DNA from: Candidatus Saccharimonadales bacterium
GTDB lineage: Bacteria; Patescibacteriota; Saccharimonadia; Saccharimonadales; UBA7683
DNA length: 64,000 nucleotides
Direction of reading: 5' to 3'
NCBI GenBank assembly: GCA_046350615.1
Contig: JAXMAA010000001.1
Span: 136,480-200,479 of the forward strand
Every line of letters begins with the position of its first letter. Within the stretch, counting starts at the first letter, position 1. Below are positions 1,576-54,213 of the stretch, piece after piece. A program made the position numbers and the translations under genes. The notes beneath the pieces are model-generated. The model was not told the origin of the DNA, did not search any database, and worked only from the letters and a program-made list of their open reading frames with translations.

Positions 1576-2871
1576 CTAATCTTCGTCTTTTTCTTCAGAT
1601 TCTTTGTTCTTCTTGCGTCGGAAGCGGCGCAAAAATGCCGGAACATCATGCTCTGAATCTGACTTTTGCTCATCGTCATCGCTTGCCCAGATATTAGAGC
1701 TTGGTACATCCTCGCTTTTATGAAACGGCGTGTCATCTTCGCCTTTTTCTTCAGCAGTGAGTGAGCCACCCTGAGCATCACTTGCATCCTCGTCCATATT
1801 GATCGTCTCTACTTCTCCCTCAACCTCACCTAATGAACTAGAAAGTTGCGGTTCTTCATCATCCTCATCGGTATCATCATCACCTGCGACTGCGCCACCA
1901 CGCTTTGCAAAATAAGCAGCATCAAAGCCAGTTGCAATTACCGTAATTTCAAGCTTATCGCTCATATCCGGCTTAATAGTTGCACCGAAAATGATATTTG
2001 CATCTGGTGAAACAGCCGCCGTAATAACCTCGGCTGCCTCGTTAACCTCATGCATTGAGAGGTCGTTACCACCAGTAATATTGAATACTACACCACGTGC
2101 ACCATCAATAGAAACCTCAAGTAGTGGCGACTCAATCGCCTGTTGTGCGGCAATAACTGCGCGGTTCTCCCCTGAACCACGGCCAATACCCATCAAAGCC
2201 GAGCCAGCATGGCTCATAACAGATTTTACATCAGCAAAATCAAGGTTGATTAAGCCGTGTTCGGTAATAAGGTCAGAAATGCCTTGCACACCTTGCCGTA
2301 GTACATCATCCGCGACGGTGAATGCTTCAAGTAGTGGCGTGTTCCTATCAATTGTCTGAAGCAAGCGGTCGTTGGGAATAGTAATAAGCGTATCGACATA
2401 CTTAGAAAGATTATCTATTGCAAACTCAGCATTCTTACGACGCTTCTCGCCCTCAAAGGCAAATGGTCGTGTTGCTACGCCAACCGTTAGTATATCCATC
2501 TCCTGAGCCAACTGCGCTACTACGTGTGCCGCACCCGAGCCGGTACCACCACCGGCACCAAGTGTAATAAATACCATATCTGCACCGGTCAGCGCCTCTT
2601 TGATTTCATCTTTAGATTCTTCCGCAGCCTTCTGACCCATGGTGGGGTCTGCACCAGCACCAAGACCACGAGTAGTATCTTTACCAATGTGTATTTTTAC
2701 TGCTGCTTGTGAGTGATACAGAGCCTGGGCATCGGTGTTAATCGCTATAAACTGCACACCCTTAAGGCCAGAATCTACCATCCGGTTCACCGCTGAACCA
2801 CCAGCGCCACCAACCCCCACTACTTTAATAGATGCAAATGCTTGAATATCGGCAGGTTTTACTTCTGGCAC
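1576..2871 (-). CDS. ftsZ: Cell division GTPase FtsZ with an acidic disordered C-terminal tail
   Basis: Carries the [13 protein letters not shown] and [11 protein letters not shown] tubulin signature motifs; 431 aa. Confidence 0.97.
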
Positions 2872-3010
2872 GTTTCCCCCTCACTTACTTATGGTACTCA
2901 GTATATACCGCATGTGCTAGGAAAATCAATAACGCCAAAATTCAGCACCACCACCAGAGGTTACCACGAACACTTTTGGTATACACTGTTAAAAATTTAT
3001 GTGTTCAAAA

Positions 3011-3139
3011 TTTGATATTTATGTAGCATGTATCATTTTGCATGTAGCGTAGATGTAGCAATGACCATGTTTCATGTGTCGGACAAAATGCTACATGAAA
3101 CATCTATGATCAATGGCACATGTTACATGATAAATACGG
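3011..3139 (+). repeat. CATG/ATG-dense module, copy A (ftsA 3' end / ftsA-ftsZ spacer)
   Basis: About 13 ATG within roughly 125 nt. It shares exact words with the copies at 28.3 kb and 51.5 kb: agatgtagcaat, ccatgtttca, catgataaat, catgttacat. Confidence 0.6.
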
Positions 3140-4452
3140 AAACGACCGCTAGAACCCGAAACGGGAGAGGATTTTTGGAAGAGGTTTCGGGCTTGATCTG
3201 CGCTATGCTGCAACCTACCACCTAAGCCACGCCCACCGTAGCTAGTGTCTTCATCTTTATGAACATCGAGGAGCATCAGGCCTACTGCTGTCGCGTATTC
3301 TGGTCGCGCAACCTTCTCTTTTAATCCGCCTATGCTGGCTGGGAAAGCCACGCGAGCAGAAAGTGCCAGCTCCTCTTTCACGCTATCTCATCAATACCCG
3401 GAAGATGCGCCGTACCGCCCACCAGTGTGATACCGCCTGGGATTTTTTTGCTACGATGTATCTTTGCCAACTCTTTATCGACTGATTCAAATAGTTCAAC
3501 CAATCGGGCGGTGATAACCAGCTCAATATCTTTAGTTGGGAAAACGTGTTCACTCCGATTAACCACCACTTTTACATGCTTTGGCCGTGTTTTGCTGCTC
3601 TGCGTTAAAGTACTTGTAATTCTTTTTCACGGCTTCAGCAACTTTGAGATCGGTCCTGAGGCCAATGGCAAGGTCGTTAGTAATATGATTGCCACCAATT
3701 GGTATAACACTCACCAACTGCACATCGCCGTCTTCAATCACAATCAGGTTTGAGGTGGTCGCACCAATATCAAGTACCGCCACACCATTCTCACGCTGCT
3801 CTCGCGAAATCACCGCTTGCGCTGCGCCAAGACTACCCACGCTTAAACGATTAACGCGGGTTTGAGTAGTCTCAACCACTTTTTCAAGATTTTTTAATGC
3901 TGGCGCTGCAACCGTTACCACATGTGCATCAACCTCAAGCCGGGTGCCGCTCATGCCAATGGGGTCTTTAATATTAGCCTGGCCATCGAGATTATAACTA
4001 CGTGGGAAAACGCTCAAAATCTCGTGGTGCTGCGGCAGCTGAAGCACCGTAGCCGCATCTTCAACTCTCAAAAGATCATCCTCGGTAATTTCATTGCCAG
4101 AAACCGCAATGATGCCCTTAGAATCCACACCTTTGATGTGTGATCCGTTAATGTTTGCTGTTCCGCTGCTAATTTGAACCCCTGCCATACGCTCAGCGTT
4201 AGCAATCGCCTGATCAAGCGCTGAAGCCGTTTCAGATATATTGACTACGCTTCCTTTGCGAAATCCAGAGTTTATGGCTTCACCAAGGCCGATAAGTTTT
4301 ACTGTTTGATCTTCTTGTACCAGCCCAATAGTGCATCGGACTGAGGTGGTGCCAATATCAATACCCACCGCTACCTGTTGATGTTCTTGCATAGCTAAAA
4401 GTATACCGCTTGTGGCTACGCTTGTGCAACTGTCGGCTAAGATCAGTTTCAA
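3091..4452 (-). pseudogene. ftsA: Cell division protein FtsA split into three ORFs by two frame disruptions
   Basis: ORFs 3559-4452, 3378-3569 and 3091-3381 together read as one actin-like FtsA (VGIDIGTTSVR...LDIGATTSNL...GGTAHLPGIDEIA / KEELALSARVA). The probable true start is MQEHQQ at 4392. The frame changes near 3600 and near 3380. Confidence 0.85.
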
Positions 4453-26014: not shown

Positions 26015-26043
26015 AAGAAGAGTGCTGCAACAGCACTCTTCTC
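26015..26043. terminator. Bidirectional stem-loop between convergent genes
   Basis: aagaagagtgctg-caa-cagcactcttctc, a perfect stem of about 12 bp. Confidence 0.6.
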
Positions 26044-26072
26044 TAAGATCCAAGAACTACAATCTAAGATCT
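26042..26072 (+). repeat. AGATCT-containing 31-nt motif (copy 1)
   Basis: tctaagatccaagaactacaatctaagatct, near-identical to 51919-51949. Both lie at the 3' end of minus-strand genes. Confidence 0.6.
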
Positions 26073-27438: not shown

Positions 27439-27589
27439 AGATATATGTTGTTTTTTAAGCAACATATATCCTGATCGATTCTTATAACGTTCTTTTAAAT
27501 TGAACGTGTGATCGTAATGATACACACAAATAACTGGTCAAACGTTCTCTTGTCTTCATTCGCTAAGGCGAATTCAAACAAGAGAAGCA

Positions 27590-30915
<3,326 letters not shown>

Positions 30916-32596: not shown

Positions 32597-34055
32597 AAAG
32601 GAGGTAATCCATCCCCACCTTCCGTAGATACCTTGTTACGACTTAACCCCAGTTATCCCCCCACCTTAGGCTCAATAAATTAGACTCGGGTGTTGGTGAC
32701 TTCATGCATTTGACGGGCGGTGTGTACAAGACCTTGAACGTATTCACCGTAGTGTGCCGACTCACGATTACTAGTGATTCCATTGGGCGCAGGCGAGTTT
32801 CAGCTCGCAATCCGAATCCGCCGGGGGACTTGGCTTACGGACGAGTTCCCCTCGCGGGTTGGTTGCCCTTGCACTTACGCATTGTAGCGTTTTTCTAGCC
32901 CAGGACGTAAGGGTAATAATGACCTGACATCATCCCCTCCTTCCCTCCCCGTTACCGAGGCAGTCTGTTTAGAAAAATCCGGCACCGAAATATAAGGGTT
33001 GCGCTCGTTGAAGGACTTAAACCTAACATCTCACGATACGAGCTGACGCTTGGCTATGCAACACTCAGTCACTTGTCCATTAAAGCAATTTTCTTGCTTT
33101 CGCAGAAATTCCAAGGATGTCAAGCCCTGGTAAGGTTCTTCGCTTATCATCGAATTAAAGAACACGCTCCACTACTTGTGCGGGTCCCCGCTTGGTTCCT
33201 TTGAGTTTTAATCTTGCGACTGGTAATTCTGCGCGGATGCTTAACGCGTTAGCTTCTGCTACTAGAAGGGTCGATACTCCTAACAGCTAGCATCCATCGT
33301 TTACGGCGCATCAATGGCATCTAATCCCGTTCGCCTCACGCTTTCGTGCCTCAGTGTCAGAAATGAGCCAGTCACCTGCCTACGCCATTGGTGTTCCTCC
33401 TTATATCTACGGATTTCACTCCTACACAAGAAATTCCAGTGACCTCTCTCATTCTCGAGCTGTGCCAGTTTGAATAATGTGTTGATGGTTGAGCCACCAG
33501 ATTTCACTATTCACTTTAGTTTAGCCACCACGCAACTCTTTACGCCCAGTAAATCGGATAACGCTTGATCCTCCAGGCGACCGCGCTGCTGCACGGAGTT
33601 GGGCTGATCCTTATCTGGCGTGCTTACCGTCATATTTCGCACATAAAAGCAGTTTATAATCCGAAAACCTTCATCCTGCACGCGGTGTTGCTCCATCAGG
33701 TTTGCGCCCATTGTGGAAAATTCCTAACTGCCTCCTGTAGGAGTCTGACCGTGTCTCTAGTTCCAGTGTGGCTGATCATCCTCTCAAATCAGCTGAAGAT
33801 CGTCGCCTTGGTAAGCCTTTACTCTCACCAAACTAGCTAATCTTACGCGGGGCTCTTCTCAAACTGAAGCTTTAATCCGAAGACTATATGCGGTATTAGA
33901 CACCGTTTCCAGGTTATCCCTCAGTTTGGGGTAGATTCCACGTGTTACCTTACCTGTCCGCTGTCGTGTACTCTTCGAAGGGGCCTACCGCTCGACTTGT
34001 ATGTTTTAGGTACGCCGCCAGCGTTCATCCGGAGCTTTGTGATCAAACTCTCCAT
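32597..34055 (-). rRNA. rrs: 16S rRNA (recognisable, but universal sites are altered)
   Basis: Reverse complement starts AGAGTTTGATC and ends ...AAGTCGTAACAAGGTATCTACGGAAGGTGGGGATGGATTACCTCCTTTC. TGTACACACCGCCCGTCA is intact, while the 515, 785, 907 and 1050-1100 regions carry indels and substitutions. Confidence 0.85.
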
Positions 34056-34247
34056 AAAAAAGTGTTTAATTCTAACTTCGTCGAAATACTGAACATCTCA
34101 AATTATTAAACATCAAAACTTAACGTTGATGCTGTATCATCAGTTTTTAAAGTGAGCCTCTCTCTGTAAGAATTAAGAATGATTGCCCCCAGATAAGACC
34201 AATGGTATTACTCGTAATCTCGCATAAAAGATCAGGATAGTACTGCA

Positions 34248-41744: not shown

Positions 41745-42314
41745 ATGAGCGAACAATATCGTACACACGAGAAACATGGTGAATCACAGATAACTACGGC
41801 TGAGGAATCAAAACAACACCACGAACGCCTTCATGAAAACCGCGAGAAAGCGGCTGAGCACGCTCGGCGCAGTGGACATGAGACCGAAACGATACGACAC
41901 GAAGTACAGGAAACTGCTATCTCAGGCGCAGAATATCACAAGCCACAATCTGAAAAGCGGCACATAACAACTCCTCGTACGAAAGCCGACAAAGTGCATG
42001 CCTTTGACACAATCATGCACCATGTACATCAAAACATGTCTAAATCAGAGCGGCGCTTTAGTGGCTTCATTCATAAACCAGCTGTTGAAAAAACTAGTGA
42101 AGCGTTGGGCAAGACCATCGCTCGCCCATCAGGAATAGCAGGAGCAACAATTGCTGCATTCTTAGGTCTACTTTCTATTTACAGTATTGCAAAATTCGCA
42201 GGCTTTGAGCTCTCTGGATCTGAGATGCCCTTACTACTCTTAGCTGGTTTTGGTGTTGGACTCCTTGTGGAGTGGTTTTACAAGGTAATCCGATCGTTAG
42301 CTGGACAGGCCTAA
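41745..42314 (+). CDS. Membrane protein with a His/Glu/Lys-rich N-terminal region and two C-terminal TM helices
   Basis: 189 aa. IAGATIAAFLGLLSIYSIA and MPLLLLAGFGVGLLVEWF hydrophobic segments. Confidence 0.55.
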   Translation: MSEQYRTHEKHGESQITTAEESKQHHERLHENREKAAEHARRSGHETETIRHEVQETAISGAEYHKPQSEKRHITTPRTKADKVHAFDTIMHHVHQNMSKSERRFSGFIHKPAVEKTSEALGKTIARPSGIAGATIAAFLGLLSIYSIAKFAGFELSGSEMPLLLLAGFGVGLLVEWFYKVIRSLAGQA

Positions 42315-46854: not shown

Positions 46855-47956
46855 CCGTATTAACCGCATAATTTCGGTTGACCCTCACTTGCACTGCTCA
46901 CGACCTGCCATCTGTAAAAAGGGCTGGATAATCATGGGTGGCTGTGCTTTTCTGGTGTATGGAAATACGACAACAAAAAAGCACCTGCTGCAGCGCCCGT
47001 GTGCGACGCTACGGTGGCAAACGAAGACAATGTGCCGCCTGTAAACAAACCTGGAGAGTATACCCTGCAAAACGAGGTCCAAAAAAGAGGCGGCCAGATG
47101 TACATCTACTTGAGCTGTACCGGTGTAACTGTATTGGGTCGCTTGCTGCTCATGCTCAGCGCACAAGCTACACACCGTCTACCATCCAGCGAAGGGTCGT
47201 TTCTGCTCGGGAAAGTGTCGTTCGTGCTGCCGCCAAAGAGTCTATGACCTGCGTAGAGCCTCATATCCTTCTTGCAGATGCACTGCATCAAAAGATAGGT
47301 GCGGTGCAGTACGTTACATATCTCATTCTCGTACGCCCGCTCCGGAGTAATCGGGCTGCAGTGTGCGCCACCACAACGGCTCGAGGTGCTGAAACCGGCA
47401 TTGGGTGGCAAAGAGCACTCTCGCATGTTCCCTCAGAGATGCTTGCTCAAACAAGAGCACTCGTCAGCGATGGACATCGGGGGCTCCTACGTATTGCGAG
47501 GCAGCGAGGCTGGGTGCAGCAACGATGCTGCTTTCATGTACTGAAAGAGCTCAACAAGAACATGCGACTATGGCACCGAGCTACACCCGAGACATACTGG
47601 GTGCATGAACTGGTGCATATAGTACTGGAGTCACCCGATGACGAGCGGGTCTCTAGGGTGCTCGGGCTATTGAGTGATTATGCGATGCAAACACCCAGAA
47701 CCGAAGTTGCAAGTATTTTACGAGGATTAGTACAAAACTTCCGAGACTACCGAAGCTATCTATACTATCCAGAGTTGCATTTACCCGCAACCAACAATAG
47801 CTGTGAATCTAGCTTTCGAAGAGTACGGGCACTGCAAAACAAGGCTCGAGGTTGGCGTACACCAACTGCCTACGAAGGATGGGTTACCTATGTACTGCGC
47901 AACTCAAAGGACGTACAGTGCTTAGAGGGTCAACCGAAATTATGCGGTTAATACGG
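46855..47956 (+). mobile_element. Insertion sequence (about 1.1 kb) with perfect 32-bp terminal inverted repeats
   Basis: Left end ccgtattaaccgcataatttcggttgaccctc (46855-46886) is the exact reverse complement of gagggtcaaccgaaattatgcggttaatacgg (47925-47956). GAAT flanks both ends. A single transposase ORF ends inside the right IR. Confidence 0.9.
46938..47951 (+). CDS. DDE transposase with an N-terminal zinc ribbon (IS256/Mutator-like catalytic motifs)
   Basis: 337 aa. CCSARVRRYGG..CAACKQTW; LLADALHQK (DAxxxK), LVSDGHRGL (SDxHxGL), ATNNSCESSFRRVR (TNxxES). Confidence 0.75.
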   Translation: MAVLFWCMEIRQQKSTCCSARVRRYGGKRRQCAACKQTWRVYPAKRGPKKRRPDVHLLELYRCNCIGSLAAHAQRTSYTPSTIQRRVVSARESVVRAAAKESMTCVEPHILLADALHQKIGAVQYVTYLILVRPLRSNRAAVCATTTARGAETGIGWQRALSHVPSEMLAQTRALVSDGHRGLLRIARQRGWVQQRCCFHVLKELNKNMRLWHRATPETYWVHELVHIVLESPDDERVSRVLGLLSDYAMQTPRTEVASILRGLVQNFRDYRSYLYYPELHLPATNNSCESSFRRVRALQNKARGWRTPTAYEGWVTYVLRNSKDVQCLEGQPKLCG

Positions 47957-48002: not shown

Positions 48003-48484
48003 CGGTGAGTTTTGAGAGTCAGTTATTTATAGATTGACCAAATTTTTCGCCAAACTCAACATGTCAAAGCCAATGAGTTGGTGATTTATGATTCAGGCAC
48101 ATTTTTAAGCCGAACCCAACACCGACTGCAGCGCGCTCAAGTTAATTGCTACTTCAGTTTAATACCAATCACCGCTAGGCAGCTTGTATGCTTCGATTAA
48201 AAAGATGTTCATAAAGATAGTAGATAAGAAATCGGAGTATGGCCAAATACCGTGCAACTATACATTGGGGTTTGCCCTATAAAGAAGCTATTGATCACGC
48301 CCCGCACATTGACGCCCCGATGCACCGCAAAATGCACACCGAGCTACCATAGCACTAACATTTTTCGTAGCTTGGAGTCAGTGACTGCGTAGCAAATAAT
48401 TCTATGGCAAGACATTCTCAGGAATTGCTAGAAGCTAAGTAGATTATATGTGGATAACTACTTTTAAATTTCTTTCATTTTTGT

Positions 48485-48513
48485 GTTGACATAACCTTTT
48501 TGGAGGCCTATTA
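48485..48513 (+). promoter_or_regulatory. Near-consensus sigma70-type promoter
   Basis: TTGACA (48485-48490), a 17-nt spacer, then TATTAT (48508-48513). Confidence 0.55.
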
Positions 48514-48518
48514 TGATA

Positions 48519-48600
48519 GTGGTACTTGAATAAAAAAAGTACTCAAAACAAAAAGATAAACCCTTGAAACAACGGCTCCTCGCAGGCCGTTGTTTTCTAT
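48519..48600 (+). ncRNA. Candidate small RNA or leader/attenuator upstream of comM-like gene
   Basis: The region downstream of the promoter has hairpin gtact-N11-agtac and a terminator acaacggc-tcctcgcag-gccgttgt followed by TTTTCT. It ends about 50 nt before the 48649 start. Confidence 0.4.
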
Positions 48601-48648
48601 TTCATATCTGTTATTATGGAACTGAAAACCTAAGCATAAGGGGCATGC

Positions 48649-50154
48649 ATGGTAACAGCAAAAGTATTTTCGGCGGCAAATATTGGGTTTGAGGGAAGAC
48701 TAATTGAGATTGAGTGCGATGCGACGAACGGTCTTCCCGGCATAGTGATCGTTGGGCTTGCAAATAAAGCAATAGACGAAGCCAAAGAGCGCCTCCGAAG
48801 TAGTATTAAAAATAGCGACCTAGTTATGCCGAGAAAGCGAATCACACTCAACCTGGCACCAGCCGATTTGCCCAAAGACGGCTCATGCTACGACCTCCCT
48901 CTCGCCATTGCAGTACTTGCAACCAGCCAGCAAATTAAAAAAGAGTTGCTCGTTGACTCTCTTTTTGTTGGCGAACTGTCCCTTAGTGGCAGTCTCAGAC
49001 CGATTCGTGGAGCTATTACCCACACGGAGGTCGCAAAATTGGAAGGCTTCAAACGAATTTTCGTACCAGAAGCATCCGCAAAACAAGCAGCACTTATAGA
49101 TGGTATTGAGGTGATACCCGTAAAGAACCTTCTGGAACTATGTCGGCACCTAAATGGAGAAAAAAGCATAGCTCCTCAGCCCCCTACTGCAGCTGAAACA
49201 AAACAACATAAAAAATCAGTCGATTTTTCAGACATTTATGGTCAGACATCGGCAAAACGTGCTCTAGAAATTGCAGTGGCAGGGCATCATAATATCTTGC
49301 TCAGCGGCCCCCCGGGCGCCGGTAAGACTATGATGGCTCGTGCGCTCCTCTCTATCCTACCTCCACCCTCGACCGAAGAAATCATCGCAATAACAAAGCT
49401 CCACAGCCTTGCAGGAGAGTTAACCGAAGAAATATATCAATCACGCCCTTTTCGAACACCACACCATACCAGCAGCAGCGTTGCACTTATTGGGGGCGGA
49501 AGAAATCCAAGACCAGGTGAAATTAGCTTAGCGCACAAAGGAATTTTGTTTCTAGATGAATTTCCCGAATATACCAGATCATCACTCGAGGCGCTCAGAC
49601 AGCCCCTTGAGGATCGGACCGTAACTATTGCTCGAGCACAAGACACCGTCGCATTTCCTGCCGATTTTATGCTCGTTGCAACCCAAAACCCCTGCCCTTG
49701 TGGCTATTATATGGATCCTGATCATACGTGCAGCTGCACACCACACCAAATTAACCAGTACAGCAAGAAGATATCTGGACCACTTCTAGATCGCATCGAC
49801 CTCGTAGTAGCCGTTCAAAAGGTTGAACACAAACACCTTCTTCCCGATCAAACACTGTCAAGCGAGAGCAAACAGATCAGTGAACGAATTAATCACGCTC
49901 GAAAAAAGCAGTTAGGACGATTTGAGAGTAATCATAAAGTCAACGCCCACATGAGTAATCGAGATATAGTCGAGAAAGCGCAACTCGCAAAAGAGGCTAA
50001 GCTTTTTCTGGAAACGGCTGCACAAAAATTAGGCCTATCCGCCAGAGGCTATATGAAAGTTATTAGAGTTGGCCGAACAATTGCAGATATCGAAGGATGC
50101 GACGCAGTTGAAACGAGTCATATTAGCGAGGCATTACAATACAGACCCCGTTGA
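48649..50154 (+). CDS. comM: YifB/ComM-family Mg-chelatase-like ATPase
   Basis: 501 aa. N-terminal Lon-protease-like domain, Walker A LLSGPPGAGKTMMA, ILFLDEFPE, and a C-terminal ChlI-like region. Confidence 0.9.
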   Translation: MVTAKVFSAANIGFEGRLIEIECDATNGLPGIVIVGLANKAIDEAKERLRSSIKNSDLVMPRKRITLNLAPADLPKDGSCYDLPLAIAVLATSQQIKKELLVDSLFVGELSLSGSLRPIRGAITHTEVAKLEGFKRIFVPEASAKQAALIDGIEVIPVKNLLELCRHLNGEKSIAPQPPTAAETKQHKKSVDFSDIYGQTSAKRALEIAVAGHHNILLSGPPGAGKTMMARALLSILPPPSTEEIIAITKLHSLAGELTEEIYQSRPFRTPHHTSSSVALIGGGRNPRPGEISLAHKGILFLDEFPEYTRSSLEALRQPLEDRTVTIARAQDTVAFPADFMLVATQNPCPCGYYMDPDHTCSCTPHQINQYSKKISGPLLDRIDLVVAVQKVEHKHLLPDQTLSSESKQISERINHARKKQLGRFESNHKVNAHMSNRDIVEKAQLAKEAKLFLETAAQKLGLSARGYMKVIRVGRTIADIEGCDAVETSHISEALQYRPR

Positions 50155-50217
50155 ACTCCTGTTGCTACTGTGCTATACTTTGCTCCAAAGATTTGAAAGT
50201 ATTAACAGGAGTAACAT

Positions 50218-50742
50218 ATCAAACAACCGCAAACGCGCCTGAATCACGCAATCCGTGCGAATGAACTCAGGGTCATTGATGAAAACGGCAACCAAGCCGG
50301 AGTCTTAACACGGAGCGAGGCACTGCAACGGGCCGAGCTTGCCGGTCTTGATCTGGTTGAAGTCTCACCAAATGCAAATCCACCAGTTGCTCGTATTGTT
50401 GACTGGGGTAAATACAACTACCAGAAGACTAAGCAGCTCCAGAAGCAAAAAAAGCTTGCAAAAGTTGTTGACCTAAAACAGATTCGACTTGGCATGCGAA
50501 TTGGAGATAACGATCTTGAAATAAAGATCGGACGCGCAAGAAAGTTTCTAGAGGCTGGTCATAAGGTTAAAGTTATGTTACTCTATAGGGGTAGAGAAAA
50601 TGCTCACAAAGAGCTTGGGTTCACCTTATTCGAACGAATCACCTCAAAACTAGAGGATATCGCAGTAGTGGACCAACCGGCACAACTGGCCGGACGTAAT
50701 TTAACTATCACCTATAGGAGATCTACGAATGCCAAAAATTAA
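50218..50742 (+). CDS. infC: Translation initiation factor IF-3 with a non-AUG (ATC) start
   Basis: The frame is open from the stop at 50212-50214. AGGAG lies 6 nt before ATC 50218-50220. Product (M)[28 protein letters not shown]...; the track shows only the 50494 Met-start fragment. Confidence 0.85.
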
Positions 50743-50923
50743 GACCCACAAGGGCACCACAAAGCGTGTACGCACATCTGCGACCGGTAAATTACTCCGT
50801 GAACGCGCTTTCAAGAACCATTTGCTAGCTAAAAAATCTGCTGGCCGAAAACGGAACAATGCCGGATCTCAATCTGTTAGTAGCGGTGATAAGAATAAGA
50901 TTAAACGTGCGCTTGGTGCGTAA
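50729..50923 (+). CDS. rpmI: 50S ribosomal protein L35
   Basis: [33 protein letters not shown]; 64 aa. Confidence 0.95.
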
Positions 50924-50946
50924 GAAACAATCGTTAAGGAGTTAGT

Positions 50947-51291
50947 ATGCGAGTGAAACGAGGCGTTACCAGCCACCAGAAACACAAGAAAGTTATTAAA
51001 CAAGCAAAAGGCATGCAACGTGCCAGGCGAAGCTCTATCAAGCTCGCTCGTCAGGGTGTTATTCGTGCCCTTCAGTATGCGTACCGAGATCGCCGCAACA
51101 AAAAACGTGATCTTCGCGGCCTCTGGATTACCCGCATTAACGCTGCCGTACGTGAACACGGCGTCAGCTACAGTGCCTTCATGGCAAGCCTCAAGAAGAA
51201 CAACGTAGAAATTGATCGTAAAATCCTCTCTGAACTGGCTGTTAATCATCCAAAAGCCATTGAAACACTCGTAAAACTCGGCTCTAAATAA
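50947..51291 (+). CDS. rplT: 50S ribosomal protein L20
   Basis: [22 protein letters not shown]...[24 protein letters not shown]; 114 aa. Confidence 0.95.
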
Positions 51292-51313
51292 TATCTCTGG
51301 TATACTTGGCAAT

Positions 51314-51803
51314 GCTAGATCACTAGGTGGTCGCCCCGATTCATAGGGGAGGAAAGTCCGGGCAGCACAGGACAAGGCAGTTGCTAACGGCAACCGGGGG
51401 CAACCCTAGGGAAAGTGCCACAGAAACGAAACCGCCTGCTGTGTGGAACACAGCATTTAACAATTTACATGTAGCACGTAACAGAGATTTAACAGATGCC
51501 ATGTAACATTTATGATGGACCCATTTGATACATGAAAAACGATACATCTTTGATTAGTGATACATGCTCCATGATAAATGTCGTGCTCCGCACGGCGGGT
51601 AAGGGTGAAACGAGTGAGGTAAGAGCTCACAGTCGGCCGTGGTGACACGGAAGAGAGGTAAACCCTGCCTGCTGCAAGGAGATTTGGTTGCACTTAAGGC
51701 TGTCCGCCGTAATCAGATCACAAGAACCGCTCGATTTGTCCAGCAATGGGCCAACTAGATAGATGATCACCCTCGACAGAACCCGGCTTATCGGTGGTCT
51801 AGC
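51314..51803 (+). ncRNA. rnpB: RNase P RNA (bacterial type A) with an insertion of about 130 nt in P12
   Basis: GAGGAAAGTCCGGGC, GGGAAAGTGCCACAGAAA, GGTAAGGGTGAAA, GGTAAGAGC and ACAGAACCCGGCTTA. P1 pairs gctagatcac (51314) with gtggtctagc (51794). Confidence 0.9.
51456..51586 (+). repeat. CATG/ATG-dense module, copy C, inside RNase P RNA P12
   Basis: Three gatacat direct repeats. gatacatctttgat (51541-51554) is identical to the 23S copy, and catgataaat (51570-51579) is identical to copy A. Confidence 0.6.
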
Positions 51804-51812
51804 ACCCGGTTT

Positions 51813-51949
51813 AGATCTCAGATCTTAGTTCTTAGAGGGTTAGAATCTTAAGACAAGGCGTTGTACTCAAGCTACAAAATGACTAATACGGTTGGACCTT
51901 AAGAAAGTTATCACGAATTCTAAGATCTAAGAACTACGCTCTAAGATCT
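51813..51949. repeat. Inverted AGATCT-motif pair between rnpB and the Nudix-RNase H gene
   Basis: agatctcagatcttagttcttagag (51813-51837) is the inverted partner of tctaagatctaagaactacgctctaagatct (51919-51949). Confidence 0.55.
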
Positions 51950-52795
51950 CTCCCCATGGGCATTAAGAATTTCGTTAACCTTATCATCAGCCGCTTGGTT
52001 ATTTTCTCGAGGTACATGATTAAATCTTACGTGGCCGAATTGTTTCATTAGTTCTCGTATTTGCTGATTAAGCGGCCAGAGTTCTCTATTTTTTATCTTG
52101 TAGAGGCCATTCATTTGATTAACCACCAGCAAGCTGTCAACGTTGAATAAAAGCGTATCACCAAGCCCTGCATACTTCGTGGCAGCCTTTAGACCCAAAA
52201 GCACACCCGTGTACTCAGCCTGATTATTCGAGGTGATACCAATATACGAACCACCAGATTCCAGTATTTCATTAAACCTATTATAAATTACATATGCGGA
52301 AGCAGATGGGCCTGGATTGCCACGTGATCCACCATCAGAGAAAAGCGTAAGCGTTGTATTTTTCTCTTCATTTGAATATTTCTGATGTGTGCCCAGATAC
52401 TGTTGTAAAACTTCCCTTGCATCTGTTGTTATTTTCTCTTCAGGAATAGCTTGGTAATCTATCCACTCATACTCATTATGAGCATTACTCAGGACAATTG
52501 GCTGCCTTTGATTGTACGAAACTTCGAACACTGCTCTCAGATAAGGACCTTGCTTATTCGATTTAGCAAAGCTGGTGAAATACATTGGTAGTTCACTGCC
52601 AAGATTAAGTTCCTCTGAAAGCTTTCGCCTCAAAGCGTGCTCAAGGTTTTCTCCATGCTCCACCCTACCCCCAGGAAGCTCCAGGTAACCCGGTAAAAAG
52701 TGATCGTTCTGCGATCTTCGCACAACTAGCACCCGCTGATTAGCATTATGAATCAATGCATTCACAAAAACTGTTTGTTTTACATTCTCTTTCAC
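51941..52795 (-). CDS. Nudix hydrolase - RNase HI fusion protein
   Basis: 284 aa. Nudix box GGRVEHGENLEHALRRKLSEELNL in the N-terminal half. The C-terminal half has FSDGGSRGNPGPSA...NNQAEYTGVLLGL...DSLLVVNQM...NNQAADDKVN (RNase H DEDD pattern). Confidence 0.8.
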   Translation of the reverse strand: MKENVKQTVFVNALIHNANQRVLVVRRSQNDHFLPGYLELPGGRVEHGENLEHALRRKLSEELNLGSELPMYFTSFAKSNKQGPYLRAVFEVSYNQRQPIVLSNAHNEYEWIDYQAIPEEKITTDAREVLQQYLGTHQKYSNEEKNTTLTLFSDGGSRGNPGPSASAYVIYNRFNEILESGGSYIGITSNNQAEYTGVLLGLKAATKYAGLGDTLLFNVDSLLVVNQMNGLYKIKNRELWPLNQQIRELMKQFGHVRFNHVPRENNQAADDKVNEILNAHGERS

Positions 52796-52878
52796 CTTTC
52801 AATAATACTACATTGCCACGAGAATATTTTATAACCACCACTCGGCACCAGCGTCCACATATTACATATTTTTACAGA

Positions 52879-53835
52879 TCAAAATGTGAGACCTTTTGTT
52901 TCCAGTTTAGTCCTATCAATGATCTCTTTTGTATACTGATAGCTCTCAGCTTGTTTTGAACGAGCAAAGAAGCCTAACGAGCCTAGTCCGATGAGGAGCT
53001 TATAACAGTTGATTCGCTGTTGAAAATCCTTGGGTAAAGTATTCTTTTCTCGATAGTATTGCTCAAACGCTGCCGCATAACCCTGTTTATCATTCCAGAA
53101 ATCAAGCCAAGCAACATCTTTAAGCGGATCCCCATATGCGGCATGTTCCCAATCTATAACTCCAGTAATGTTCGTGCCGTCACTTAACGTATTATTAAAG
53201 CCAAAGTCATCGTGAATGAGCACTCTTTCTTCAGGACATGCGTGGATGAGTGCCAGCACCTCTGCTCTTAACTTGTCGTGATATGCTTCGTCGTAGAATT
53301 CAGCCGTTCTAGTCTCTTCGTCATCTTCACTAGCGCTAGCAATTAATGTTTCGCGCCAGGATTTGAACTTTCCATTCCCTGTTAAATCCCAGTTGCCACA
53401 GCCTTCGCCAAGTGGTTTAACGGAGTGAATGGTTTCTAAAGTCTCAATTATTTTTGGCATAAGTGCATTAATTTCTTCACGGCTAAATTTATCGAGAGTC
53501 TTCCCTGGCACTCGTTCGGAAATTGCAAAGAACAGTCCATTTTCCATCTCTCCTACTTCGAATACTTCTGGTATCGGTAGCCCAGCGGAAGCTAGTTGTT
53601 GATGCGCCATCTGGTCTTTTAGGAAGCTCTCTTTTGAGTGGATACTAACACGCAATACTCGAGGCCCCTCTTCAGTTTCAAACAAAAATGCCTGAGAAGT
53701 TTCCCCATCAGCAATTGTTTCTAATTTTGGGTCAGTTGCATGGAGATGGTCTTCAATAAATGTTTCAGCTGCGGCTTGATCAAACCTTGTTTTATGTGTA
53801 GACATGACTCGTATTATATCAGTGGCGATCATCAA
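52879..53835 (-). CDS. Aminoglycoside/choline-kinase-type phosphotransferase (APH family)
   Basis: 318 aa. VLIHDDFGFNNTL (Brenner motif) and GVIDWEHAAYGDPLKD. Confidence 0.8.
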   Translation of the reverse strand: MMIATDIIRVMSTHKTRFDQAAAETFIEDHLHATDPKLETIADGETSQAFLFETEEGPRVLRVSIHSKESFLKDQMAHQQLASAGLPIPEVFEVGEMENGLFFAISERVPGKTLDKFSREEINALMPKIIETLETIHSVKPLGEGCGNWDLTGNGKFKSWRETLIASASEDDEETRTAEFYDEAYHDKLRAEVLALIHACPEERVLIHDDFGFNNTLSDGTNITGVIDWEHAAYGDPLKDVAWLDFWNDKQGYAAAFEQYYREKNTLPKDFQQRINCYKLLIGLGSLGFFARSKQAESYQYTKEIIDRTKLETKGLTF

Positions 53836-53883
53836 ACAAGCGAGAAAAATGATTTCAGTACTTTACAGATTAGATTCGAAGCT

Positions 53884-53959
53884 TGGTCGGGGTGACAGGA
53901 CTTGAACCTGCGACCTCACGGCCCCCAGCCGTACGCGCTACCAGCTGCGCTACACCCCG
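53884..53959 (-). tRNA. tRNA-Pro (GGG)
   Basis: Reverse complement: CGGGGTGTAGCGCAGCTGGTAGCGCGTACGGCTGGGGGCCGTGAGGTCGCAGGTTCAAGTCCTGTCACCCCGACCA. It gives a 76-nt cloverleaf. Confidence 0.9.
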
Positions 53960-54213
53960 ATACTTTACTGAAAATAAGGTGCTCCAGCCTTTTGGTTGAT
54001 TTAACCTGGAATAAACCAGGTGGGTGCCTTCACGCAATCTCCACAGAAACTGCAAATATTGGGCTCCCTTGTAGGGTATGTTCAGGAAATCAACCTACTA
54101 AGCTAGAGCACCTTCTATTATACCAATTACTCAATCGCTTTCACCTCTTGACTGTGAAACAAAAAAACAGTAGTATGTATGTTTGAAGCGTTAATCAATA
54201 TAAGGTAAGTTTT

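Follow-up and report, generated by a model that had tools for sequence, protein, structure and literature searches.

A candidate dispersed palindromic repeat in the RNase P RNA helix P12 and the 23S rRNA of a Saccharimonadales bacterium

The RNase P RNA gene and its expanded P12

RNase P RNA is encoded by a 492-nt gene, rnpB, in the Saccharimonadales contig JAXMAA010000001.1, where it adjoins rplT as elsewhere in Saccharibacteria. The gene lies in a 64,000-nucleotide stretch that was analyzed as a whole and is referred to here as the window; the features of the locus and of the related sites are collected in Table 1. In a whole-window Rfam scan, the RF00010 model covers rnpB over its full length (model 1-367 of 367, 240 bits, E 7.6e-77, against a gathering score of 100 bits). 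The P4 core and the conserved junctions are intact, which places the gene in the bacterial type A class and bears out an earlier note on this DNA that had described the type A core as complete.

The gene is longer than the RNase P RNA genes of most Saccharibacteria, which measure about 335-345 nt, and the excess is a P12 helix of approximately 165 nt, an extension of this helix by about 150 nt. According to the RF00010 alignment, one large insert interrupts the apical loop of the P11/P12 hairpin, flanked by ACCGCCUGCUGU and GGCGGGUAAGGGUGAAA. The CATG-dense P12 insert of about 130 nt reported in the earlier note is real. The three GATACAT repeats listed there are also present, at 51527, 51541, and 51559; their spacing of 14 and 18 nt is not that of a tandem repeat, and Tandem Repeats Finder (minimum score 30) returned no tandem array in 51400-51650. 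The insert is 100% identical in a second assembly, L086, and carries one SNP (51552 G>T) in a third, L087, and its presence in both shows that it is not an assembly artefact.

Table 1. Features of the rnpB locus and of related sites in the window
Feature	Position	Strand	Basis or remark
rnpB, bacterial type A RNase P RNA, 492 nt	51315..51806	+	Rfam RF00010
Expanded P12, whole, one long imperfect hairpin	51434..51600	+	MFE fold
Basal P12 helices, 5' strand, GC-rich	51434..51455	+	Pairs with 51580-51600 in the MFE fold
Basal P12 helices, 3' strand	51580..51600	+	MFE fold
Module copy 1, repeat-family core, distal P12	51455..51584	+	CM R1 128.5 bits; nhmmer 136.6 bits
GATACATCTTTGAT, 3' arm of the conserved central 10-bp stem	51541..51554	+	Pairs with CAGAGATTTA at 51482-51491
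Module copy 2, apical loop of 23S rRNA helix H79, 23S sense strand	28289..28429	-	CM R1 117.7 bits
23S rRNA gene, host of copy 2	27588..30908	-	Rfam RF02541, 1559 bits
Module copy 3, ftsA-ftsZ intergenic spacer, antisense to both genes	3021..3139	+	CM R1 118.8 bits on +, 48.2 on -
Mutator/IS256-like element, the sole IS in the window	46855-47956		32-nt terminal inverted repeats

The insert had been described as forming no obvious extended helix, and this description does not hold. Nucleotides 51432-51600 fold as a single long hairpin (MFE -59.6 kcal/mol, z = -6.0), which is kept in both the MFE and the centroid folds of the full 492-nt RNA. Each basal strand can alternatively form a local hairpin of its own, TGCTGTG-TGGAA-CACAGCA in the 5' strand and CGTGC-TCC-GCACG in the 3' strand. 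The 5' basal strand has no homology to the two other copies of the module described below and lies outside the part that they have in common. Taken alone, the module cores are weak, bulged hairpins with z between -1.7 and -2.5, the 130-nt core of rnpB having z = -1.7 against shuffles.

A sequence family with three copies in the window

Judged from the alignments, the P12 insert, an insert in the 23S rRNA gene, and a stretch between ftsA and ftsZ constitute one sequence family, as the earlier note had proposed. In gapped blastn, the insert of about 130 nt matches 3025-3135 with E 9e-9 and the minus strand of 28289-28427 with E 1e-6. Pairwise local alignments of the three copies give z = 13.9, 10.6, and 7.9 against 1000 dinucleotide shuffles, and 128 AT-rich control windows score at most 15 versus 23-33 for the copies. 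The copies are collinear over approximately 130 nt with a mean column identity of 70-73%, and they are 30-35% diverged from one another. A covariance model, CM R1, run with its filters off, finds exactly three copies in the 64 kb. No open reading frame is conserved between them.

Several short words recur in the family. The 14-mer GATACATCTTTGAT is found in the window solely in the P12 insert and on the minus strand at 28321-28334, as first noted by the earlier reader, and its chance expectation is 0.06 even with one mismatch allowed. The 10-mer CATGATAAAT does recur at 3126-3135, as had also been stated; this match taken alone is close to the chance level, 0.28 being expected and two or more matches arising in 5 of 100 shuffles. 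Seven of the nine ATGTAGC occurrences in the window fall within the three copies, and the tetranucleotide GTAG lies inside this motif. The motifs ATGTAGCA and GATACATCTTTGAT and the central 10-bp stem are conserved between copies. By CATG density, the three modules are among the top 150-nt windows of the 64 kb, with 7, 5, and 4 sites, and 41876-42125 likewise reaches 4 sites. A restriction-modification signature was considered for this density and is ruled out, as CATG is not depleted genome-wide (observed/expected 0.90).

A common fold accompanies the common sequence. The consensus of the three copies is a 31-bp hairpin in which 87% of cells are paired versus 21-52% when the partners are slid. 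Five consensus pairs show compensatory double changes, a number reached by 4 of 500 shuffles, and in helix 3, the central 10-bp stem, 93% of cells are paired. The ends of the module, ATTTA...CATGTAGC on the left and GC..CATGATAAAT on the right, pair with each other as helices 1-2. The element as a whole is an imperfect palindrome, however, and sharp ends are not definable from three diverged copies.

Each of the two RNA genes carries its copy in the sense strand, at the end of a terminal peripheral helix (P12 of RNase P RNA, H79 of 23S rRNA), and the placement at exposed helices given in the earlier note is confirmed. Where the Rfam LSU model has a 15-nt consensus loop at the H79 tip, near model position 2240, the 23S rRNA of the window has 191 nt, and the region of this insert folds at -53 kcal/mol (z = -4.1). 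The third copy had been called an ftsA module, a name that must be revised: in the Illumina contig L089, the ftsA stop codon lies directly upstream of the copy, which is intergenic and not within ftsA.

This third copy also bears on how the module spreads. Of the three copies, two are found precisely at hairpin tips, in the sense strand of structured RNAs with high expression, and the earlier note had put first an RNA-level or transcription-coupled process. Such a process could be reverse splicing or a related attack on loops that abundant structured RNAs expose, with reverse transcription and recombination to follow. We regard such an entry as extremely improbable. Copy 3 is intergenic and runs opposite to the transcription of ftsA and ftsZ, and in a related species (L093-95) the spacer between Nudix and rpmB holds a partial copy (z up to 9.4), which is again intergenic. 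The module is a weak hairpin of 130 nt that has no catalytic core, and neither an intron nor a ribozyme family of Rfam has a match within or close to the inserts; the scan of the window returned rRNAs, tRNAs, and RNase P only, with no group I or group II intron among them. A neighboring 'RVT_3' Pfam match is an RNase H domain fused to Nudix and not a reverse transcriptase.

The base of P12 is a near-continuous duplex of more than 20 bp in the MFE fold, the kind of structure that serves as an RNase III substrate, and the insert may accordingly behave as an intervening sequence (IVS). An RNase III-type excision of the duplex from the transcript would leave two base-paired RNase P RNA fragments and a 23S rRNA split at H79. 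This model addresses what becomes of the insert and does not conflict with its origin as a repeat. M1 RNA rebuilt from fragments is active in vitro, which speaks for the model; against it, to our knowledge, no naturally fragmented bacterial RNase P RNA has been described, and we know of no IVS family that occurs in RNase P RNA as well. The 23S IVSs, including those of Coxiella and Campylobacter, are AT-rich extended stem-loops of 100-400 nt that occur sporadically at helix tips and are regarded as selfish or horizontally moved (PMC4990558, PMC2801512). The H79 insert resembles them in that an extended stem-loop takes the place of a 23S helix tip. The IVSs treated in these two papers, however, lie in helices 25 and 45, where excision fragments the 23S rRNA, and not in H79 (PMC4990558, PMC2801512). 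The insert may be kept in the mature RNA or lost from it, for example by RNase III cleavage as with 23S IVSs; excision is a possible outcome that we consider doubtful.

Comparison with related genomes

The site comparison with relatives covers rnpB and the ftsA-ftsZ spacer; for the 23S site, contigs with homologues of the glycosyltransferase gene beside the 5S gene stop within the 23S, short of H79, or are non-syntenic. The nearest neighbor, L081, has an rnpB 98.4% identical to that of the window outside P11-P12. There, ACTACCCTTCGGGGAAAAGG replaces the expanded P12, and the helix is a minimal UUCG P12, ACUACCCUUCGGGGAAAAGG. Two co-varying positions in P11 differ as well. The rplT genes are 93.9% identical in DNA, and identity along 5.5 kb is a mosaic of 70-100%. 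L081 was considered as the same strain lacking the insert, and this is ruled out as it belongs to a different mosaic lineage. It is not a clean empty site, and the difference in sequence looks like cassette replacement, not simple insertion.

Elsewhere P12 is mostly short among some 20 Saccharibacteria rnpB genes, at 4-40 nt in most relatives. The exception is L090, whose YifB is 77% identical and whose P12 measures 138 nt at the same site (-53 kcal/mol). This genome shares with the window the P11 variant CCGCC/GGTAAGGG. The ends of its P12 are weakly similar to those of the window P12 (z = 4.5), the similar 5' end being the basal strand and the start of the core, and its interior has z of about 0 against every module copy. 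L090 was considered as a fourth copy, a reading that a weak similarity confined to the ends does not support. A further relative, L101, has the same P11 type with a P12 of 28 nt.

The conspecific sequences L084-L089 match the window at 99.4-100% identity wherever they overlap it. There is no presence/absence polymorphism among them, as each that reaches a module site has the module: L086 and L087 reach rnpB, and L089 reaches the ftsA-ftsZ spacer. The contigs L082, L083, and L088 end at 51427-51432, exactly at the edge of the insert. A within-strain polymorphism was considered for these breaks and is ruled out; the contigs break there because two co-occurring lineages have an identical 5' half of rnpB. 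In L102, L104, and L105, the place between ftsA and ftsZ holds unrelated sequence or genes. The covariance model, searched against 363 kb of related loci, detected no complete copy. In the metagenome contig collection, neither a module-consensus pattern nor an rnpB-anchored long-P12 pattern was found, the collection evidently being without the L090 contig, an expected match to the latter. One viral scan detected no module, and blastn in distant mode gave no match in the plasmid and phage collections.

These comparisons raise the question of whether the long P12 is an old, vertically inherited helix of the lineage. In such a history, the helix would have grown in place, for example through template-switch or fold-back replication errors that create and extend hairpins, the P11-P12 cassette would have been exchanged by homologous recombination through its invariant flanks, and the similarity to the 23S and spacer copies would reflect occasional copying between loci. 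The long P12 of L090, at the same site, with the same P11 variant and similar ends, is consistent with growth in place, as is the 28-nt P12 of L101 on the same P11 type. Each basal strand holds a perfect local hairpin, a design repeated in L090 and a signature of template switching (PMC8794818). Exchange of the cassette would also fit the window and L081, which are nearest neighbors and yet differ in the whole cassette, including both P11 positions. Growth in place, however, cannot account for 130 collinear nucleotides held in common with two unlinked loci (z = 8-14) or for the partial copy in the spacer of L093-95, and the P12 interior of L090 resembles no module copy. We therefore consider this history unlikely.

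A selected function is another conceivable source of the shared sequence. The module could be an RNA element that offers a common binding platform for a protein or a partner RNA on RNase P and the large ribosomal subunit, with possible roles in assembly, localization, or regulation. The sense orientation of both RNA-gene copies at solvent-exposed tips, the conservation of the central 10-bp stem and of the motifs ATGTAGCA and GATACATCTTTGAT between copies, and an rnpB copy that is identical or one SNP apart across independent samples are in line with such a role. Identity within a species over a few hundred bases is nevertheless uninformative on selection. Copy 3, the best conserved, lies between genes and runs antisense to its neighbors, the rnpB genes of the closest relative and of most Saccharibacteria lack the module, and no candidate partner has been identified. 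A selected function is, in our judgment, very improbable.

Origin of the insert and known elements

The distal 130 nt of P12 probably belong to a dispersed repeat family whose members are small, non-coding, AT-rich, non-autonomous, and imperfectly palindromic. The family is best read as resembling MITEs, REPINs, and Rickettsia palindromic elements (RPEs) and as native to the Saccharimonadales lineage. The option of a tolerated mobile module, which the earlier note had listed second, is in this respect the best-supported reading. Among the helices of bacterial RNase P RNA, P12 varies most in length, and no universally conserved nucleotides lie in its distal part (PMC2858038). In a gene-dense genome, an element of this type would persist only where its hairpin is harmless, in intergenic spacers and in the apical loops of peripheral RNA helices. 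A self-complementary copy landing in the loop of P12 or H79 would yield a longer helix that points away from the catalytic core, the helix being simply lengthened because the element pairs with itself. Movement would presumably take place at the DNA level, and the insert may be neutral to its hosts.

The copy number of three is that of one 64-kb window. No target-site duplication or shared direct repeat is present at the three junctions, a TA/TA pair being possible solely at the ftsA-ftsZ copy, and no transposase is linked to the module within the window. The IS256-like element (Table 1) was considered as an autonomous partner and is ruled out, as its terminal inverted repeats bear no relation to the module. 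A tblastn search with the RAYT-like protein of L093 found no RAYT-like gene in the window, and the inverted repeats that flank the RAYT-like gene of L093-95 are unrelated to the module; a link to RAYTs is only a lead.

The earlier note knew of no described element of this kind, a view that needs correction, as palindromic elements in Rickettsia genes for RNase P RNA and tmRNA, and repeats in cyanobacterial P12, have already been described; the principle is not new. RPEs are inserted in the M1 (RNase P) RNA and tmRNA genes (PMC2229807, PMC1458961), and one of 526 palindromic-element copies in R. bellii lies in the tmRNA gene (PMC1458961). Like RPEs, the module is a palindromic, AT-rich, non-autonomous unit of 100-150 bp in the small, gene-dense genome of a host-dependent bacterium, is tolerated inside genes, RNase P RNA included (PMC2229807), and has no dedicated transposase known. 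Unlike them, it resides in Saccharibacteria of the CPR, another phylum, and the analogy is functional, with no sequence relation expected. RPEs mostly lie in-frame in protein-coding genes, of which there is no instance here, and their units carry a CGTC tag (PMC3733652) whereas the modules are rich in ATGTAGC. The second RNA host gene is 23S rRNA here and tmRNA for RPEs.

Two further groups of hairpin repeats offer partial parallels. Short, non-coding, hairpin-forming dispersed repeats that are mostly intergenic and vary in presence among related strains are typical of REP/REPIN sequences and MITEs (PMC3116915, PMC3733652). The module's ATGTAGC contains GTAG, the REP tag; a REP unit measures 20-40 nt and has a stem of 5-13 bp, the module being by contrast a single hairpin of about 130 nt, and neither this unit nor a window devoid of RAYTs agrees with a REP/REPIN system. 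As with MITEs, the copies are small (about 120-140 nt), non-coding, and dispersed over three unlinked sites in 64 kb. Unlike MITEs, they show no target-site duplication and no matching IS ends within the window.

In 1997, Vioque reportedly described STRR repeats in P12 of the RNase P RNA of heterocyst-forming cyanobacteria. There, too, members of a genome-wide repeat family fill the distal P12 of a type A molecule, and the helix is longer while the core is untouched. In cyanobacteria, P12 is described as a dispensable helix (PMC2858038). STRRs are tandem heptanucleotides, which the insert does not contain; the module is instead an imperfect palindrome of unique sequence, about 130 nt long. Among Saccharibacteria rRNA insertions, 64 of 66 are short (<= 250 bp) and carry neither intron nor homing endonuclease (Tsurumaki et al. 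2024, PMC11270868), and large helix extensions are documented in CPR RNase P RNAs (Lui et al. 2021, PMC8172020). In the parts of these two studies consulted, the inserts are not tied to a dispersed repeat family, nor is one family placed in both RNase P RNA and 23S rRNA.

The position of two copies at hairpin tips would also suit a mobile element that targets such tips, for example by single-strand transposition of the HUH/RAYT type into the loops of rRNA- and ribozyme-coding DNA hairpins, and that would preferentially colonize and lengthen peripheral helices. We hold such targeting to be improbable. If true, it would provide a bacterial route to expansion segments like those of eukaryotic rRNA, with recombination through invariant flanks as a possible means for P11-P12 cassettes to pass from one lineage to another.

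Read as a dispersed repeat, the module suggests that, in a reduced CPR genome, the capture of a hairpin-repeat copy can make a peripheral helix grow, both in the ribosome and in an essential ribozyme. Such inserts affect both annotation and metagenome assembly, as rnpB is made longer by one third and contigs of co-occurring lineages break at the insert edge. The family offers a testable origin for the short rRNA insertions of Saccharibacteria and for the helix extensions of CPR RNase P RNAs.

The expanded P12 helix of rnpB and its fold

The rnpB gene (51315-51806, plus strand) is a full-length type A RNase P RNA gene (Rfam, 240 bits, model positions 1-367) in which every core element aligns, as the earlier note had claimed. 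The sole large departure from the model is an insert in the P11/P12 apical loop, between ACCGCCUGCUGU and GGCGGGUAAGGGUGAAA. The host belongs to the Saccharibacteria (CPR), the nearest matches of its ribosomal protein L20 being Saccharibacteria MAGs, and the gene pair rplT-rnpB is kept across the phylum. P12 is the classic length-variable helix of RNase P RNA. Its distal part lacks universally conserved nucleotides (PMC2858038). Among 15 + 5 relatives, rnpB mostly measures 304-345 nt and its P12 a few base pairs; P12 reaches roughly 25-75 nt in a few and 138 nt in one (contig L090), and rnpB in the window measures 492 nt. Independent short-read assemblies of other samples contain the same rnpB insert, identical in L086 and with one SNP in L087, and the Illumina contig L089 has the same ftsA-ftsZ copy as the window; the sequence is therefore not an artefact.

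The insert was earlier described as forming no obvious extended helix; instead, 51432-51600 folds as a single long hairpin (-59.6 kcal/mol; shuffles -36.4 ± 3.9; z = -6.0) that recurs in the MFE and centroid folds of the whole 492-nt RNA. Most of this stability is supplied by helices at the GC-rich base (51434-51455 with 51580-51600), beyond the part common to the other copies. Taken alone, the 130-nt core gives a bulged, AT-rich hairpin whose stability is only a little above that of shuffled sequences (z = -1.7; 23S copy -2.5, spacer copy about -2). Immediately past the 3' end of rnpB, the window (51806-51950) and the related contig L081 (10246-10385) hold different palindromes of about 130-140 nt (-41.9 and -41.2 kcal/mol, respectively). 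The window palindrome is made of TCTAAGA-type words, with a 31-nt, 90% match at 26042-26072, and could represent another family of hairpin repeats or else a terminator region.

Three copies of one sequence family

The three GATACAT words and the 14-mer shared with the 23S minus strand (expected 0.06 times), both reported earlier, are present, while the 10-mer at 3126-3135 does recur but by itself is at chance level. These short words are pieces of a much larger similarity. In gapped blastn, the P12 insert of about 130 nt matches 3025-3135 (E 9e-9) and 28289-28427 on the minus strand (E 1e-6), and weaker opposite-strand matches reflect partial self-complementarity of the module. The three copies are collinear with a mean column identity of 70-73%, and their local-alignment scores of 23-33 compare with about 10 ± 1.7 for dinucleotide shuffles (z = 7.9-13.9) and at most 15 for 128 AT-rich control windows, which bears out the proposal of one family in rnpB, 23S and the ftsA-proximal stretch. 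ATGTAGC is not over-represented window-wide (9 found, 8.5 expected), with seven of the nine occurrences inside the modules (roughly 400 nt). Among all 150-nt stretches of the 64 kb, those richest in CATG fall in the three modules; 41876-42125 equals the 23S copy with four sites, and CATG is not depleted genome-wide. A census with the family covariance model, filters off, returned exactly three copies in the window, and in 363 kb of related loci the model found none that was complete; a related species (L093-95) has a partial copy in its Nudix-rpmB spacer (nhmmer and pairwise tests, z up to 9.4).

The copies share a hairpin design of 31 pairs in five helices, with 87% of cells paired against 21-52% after a shift of the partners by 1-3 columns. 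Double compensatory changes are seen in five pairs, a number reached by 4 of 500 shuffles. The central stem, the best conserved one (CAGAGATKTA with TACATCTWTG), has the shared 14-mer as its 3' arm. Coming from three sequences, this evidence for a common fold is supportive, not conclusive.

In 23S, 191 nt stand in place of a 15-nt consensus loop at the tip of a terminal hairpin near model position 2240, helix H79, an insertion as judged against the bacterial consensus. By the same comparison, at least three further 23S insertions lie in domain I/II helices, none matching the module profile. The third copy, earlier assigned to ftsA, lies outside that gene, the true stop codon being just upstream of the module according to L089. 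It fills the ftsA-ftsZ spacer, its best-matching strand antisense to both genes (118.8 versus 48.2 bits, covariance model). Compared with L089, ftsA in the window is split into three ORFs by homopolymer indels and local differences (4 mismatches and 4 gaps in 2.1 kb; ftsA region 3091-4452); the window thus contains small indel errors, which may in part explain low scores of 16S (862 bits) and 23S (1559 bits) for full-length rRNAs. In 16S (32597-34058), the universally conserved 515 region reads GUGC-AGCAGC-GCGG. Both the spacer copies and the lack of an intron-like core in an Rfam scan contradict the earlier suggestion that the module entered by an RNA-level insertion process, which is extremely unlikely.

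Coordinates of the module copies and of other features compared
Feature	Locus	Position	Strand	Length	Remarks
Module, rnpB P12	window	51455-51584	+
Module, 23S H79	window	28289-28429	-
Module, ftsA-ftsZ spacer	window	3021-3139	+
ftsA-ftsZ spacer	window	2871-3152
ftsA-ftsZ spacer	L102	9003-10001
ftsA-ftsZ spacer	L104	9744-10001
ftsA-ftsZ spacer	L105	8828-10001
Further 23S insertion	window	about 30397	-	~63 nt
Further 23S insertion	window	30490-30566	-	~79 nt
Further 23S insertion	window	30590-30625	-	~35 nt
rnpB (insert length given)	L007	5033-5568		~190 nt	P19 position near 3' end
rnpB (insert length given)	L010	4388-4776		~50 nt	P13/P14 region
rnpB (insert length given)	L090	12704-13163		138 nt	P12
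IS, Mutator/IS256-like	window	46855-47956		1102 bp	perfect 32-nt terminal inverted repeats CCGTATTAACCGCATAATTTCGGTTGACCCTC
RAYT-like Y1 (IS200/IS605-family) transposase gene	L093, also L094, L095	20259-20894 (L093)			flanked by inverted repeats TTTAGGAGGACGGACCTTCTAAA

Relatives and the P11-P12 cassette

The related contig L081 (GCA_964643895.1) encodes an identical L20 protein and an rnpB 98.4% identical to that of the window outside P11-P12, with a minimal P12 (ACUACC-CUUCGG-GGGAAAAGG). It is not the same strain: along 5.5 kb (48400-54000 versus L081 6981-12300), identity forms a recombinant mosaic, from about 70% in yifB through 85-95% in infC-rpmI-rplT and 98% in rnpB to 99-100% at an aminoglycoside-phosphotransferase-like gene (52946-53845), a pattern that indicates exchange in the recent past, by recombination or transfer, between Saccharimonadales lineages that are otherwise distinct. 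Two co-varying P11 positions differ between the two genes (CCGCC/GGGUAAGGG versus CUACC/GGGAAAAGG), so the P12 difference looks like replacement of a P11-P12 cassette, not a clean insertion. The CCGCC type is shared by L101, with a P12 of 28 nt, and by L090, whose own 138-nt P12 hairpin (-53 kcal/mol) resembles the window P12 at its ends (z = 4.5) and is unrelated to all module copies in its interior (pairwise tests); the CUACC type with a short P12 is found in L093, L097 and L001. Contigs L082, L083 and L088 stop at 51427-51432, owing to two co-occurring lineages with an identical rnpB 5' half.

This cassette pattern, together with perfect local hairpins in the basal P12 strands, would fit growth of P12 in place by template switching (PMC8794818) and cassette recombination, a scenario that is nevertheless unlikely, being at odds with 130 collinear nt common to unlinked loci.

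Among close relatives, the content of the ftsA-ftsZ spacer varies so much that it forms a hotspot, holding an unrelated 120 nt (L104), a MarR gene and a small ORF (L102/103) or a 194-aa ORF (L105), with homology restarting downstream at the conserved ftsZ leader TTGAACACATAAA. The module is lineage-specific at both sites compared with relatives, rnpB and this spacer. Its conservation, and nothing further, speaks for a selected protein-binding platform, which is very improbable given the antisense spacer copy and the relatives that lack the module.

In the window, L081, L009 and L014, rnpB and rplT share a strand. They lie on opposite strands in most of the other Saccharibacteria compared, the next-closest relatives among them, which means that the locus has undergone inversion; the comparison covered L090, L093, L097 and L101. 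Large inserts specific to a lineage are also found at other peripheral sites of Saccharibacteria RNase P RNAs (L007, L010, L090).

Origin of the module and precedents

The earlier note offered a tolerated mobile module as one option, and homology, shared fold, helix-tip position and lineage-specific presence make this the best reading: the module is probably a small, non-autonomous, imperfectly palindromic dispersed repeat. Against a textbook MITE stand the absence of target-site duplications at the three junctions in the window, ends not sharply definable from three copies, the lack of a cognate transposase in the window, and the age of the copies, any activity being old because they are 30-35% diverged from one another.

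The transposase of the only IS in the window (337 aa) has a weak Pfam match to the Mutator/IS256 family, and nothing matches this IS at that position in L081 or L082; the IS was rejected as the source of a cognate transposase, its terminal inverted repeats being unrelated to the module. The RAYT-like gene of L093 and the partial module copy are about 6 kb apart. The repeats flanking this gene are also unrelated to the module, and tblastn with its protein found no such gene in the window.

The statement that no element of this kind had been described does not hold, as precedents exist in Rickettsia, cyanobacteria, 23S intervening sequences and CPR. In heterocyst-forming cyanobacteria, P12 of the RNase P RNA is reportedly occupied by STRR repeats (Vioque 1997). 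In Rickettsia, palindromic elements occur within the genes for M1 (RNase P) RNA and tmRNA (PMC2229807), with 1 of 526 copies in the tmRNA gene in R. bellii (PMC1458961). Large helix extensions are noted in CPR RNase P RNAs (PMC8172020), and of 66 Saccharibacteria rRNA insertions, 64 are short and contain neither an intron nor a homing endonuclease (PMC11270868). The intervening sequences of 23S rRNA form AT-rich stem-loops at the tips of helices (PMC4990558, PMC2801512). Excision of the present insert in the manner of an intervening sequence, which would concern its fate and is compatible with a repeat origin, is somewhat unlikely.

For the dispersed repeat, we infer that it moved as DNA and that the insert is neutral, and the fate of the insert in the mature RNA is likewise a matter of inference; a copy at the tip of a peripheral RNA helix would merely lengthen that helix. 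In a gene-dense genome, such a repeat would persist at no sites but those where one more hairpin does no damage, namely spacers and the ends of peripheral helices in RNAs. What is added to the known systems is one repeat family behind the RNase P P12 expansion, the 23S H79 expansion and an intergenic element in one Saccharibacteria genome.
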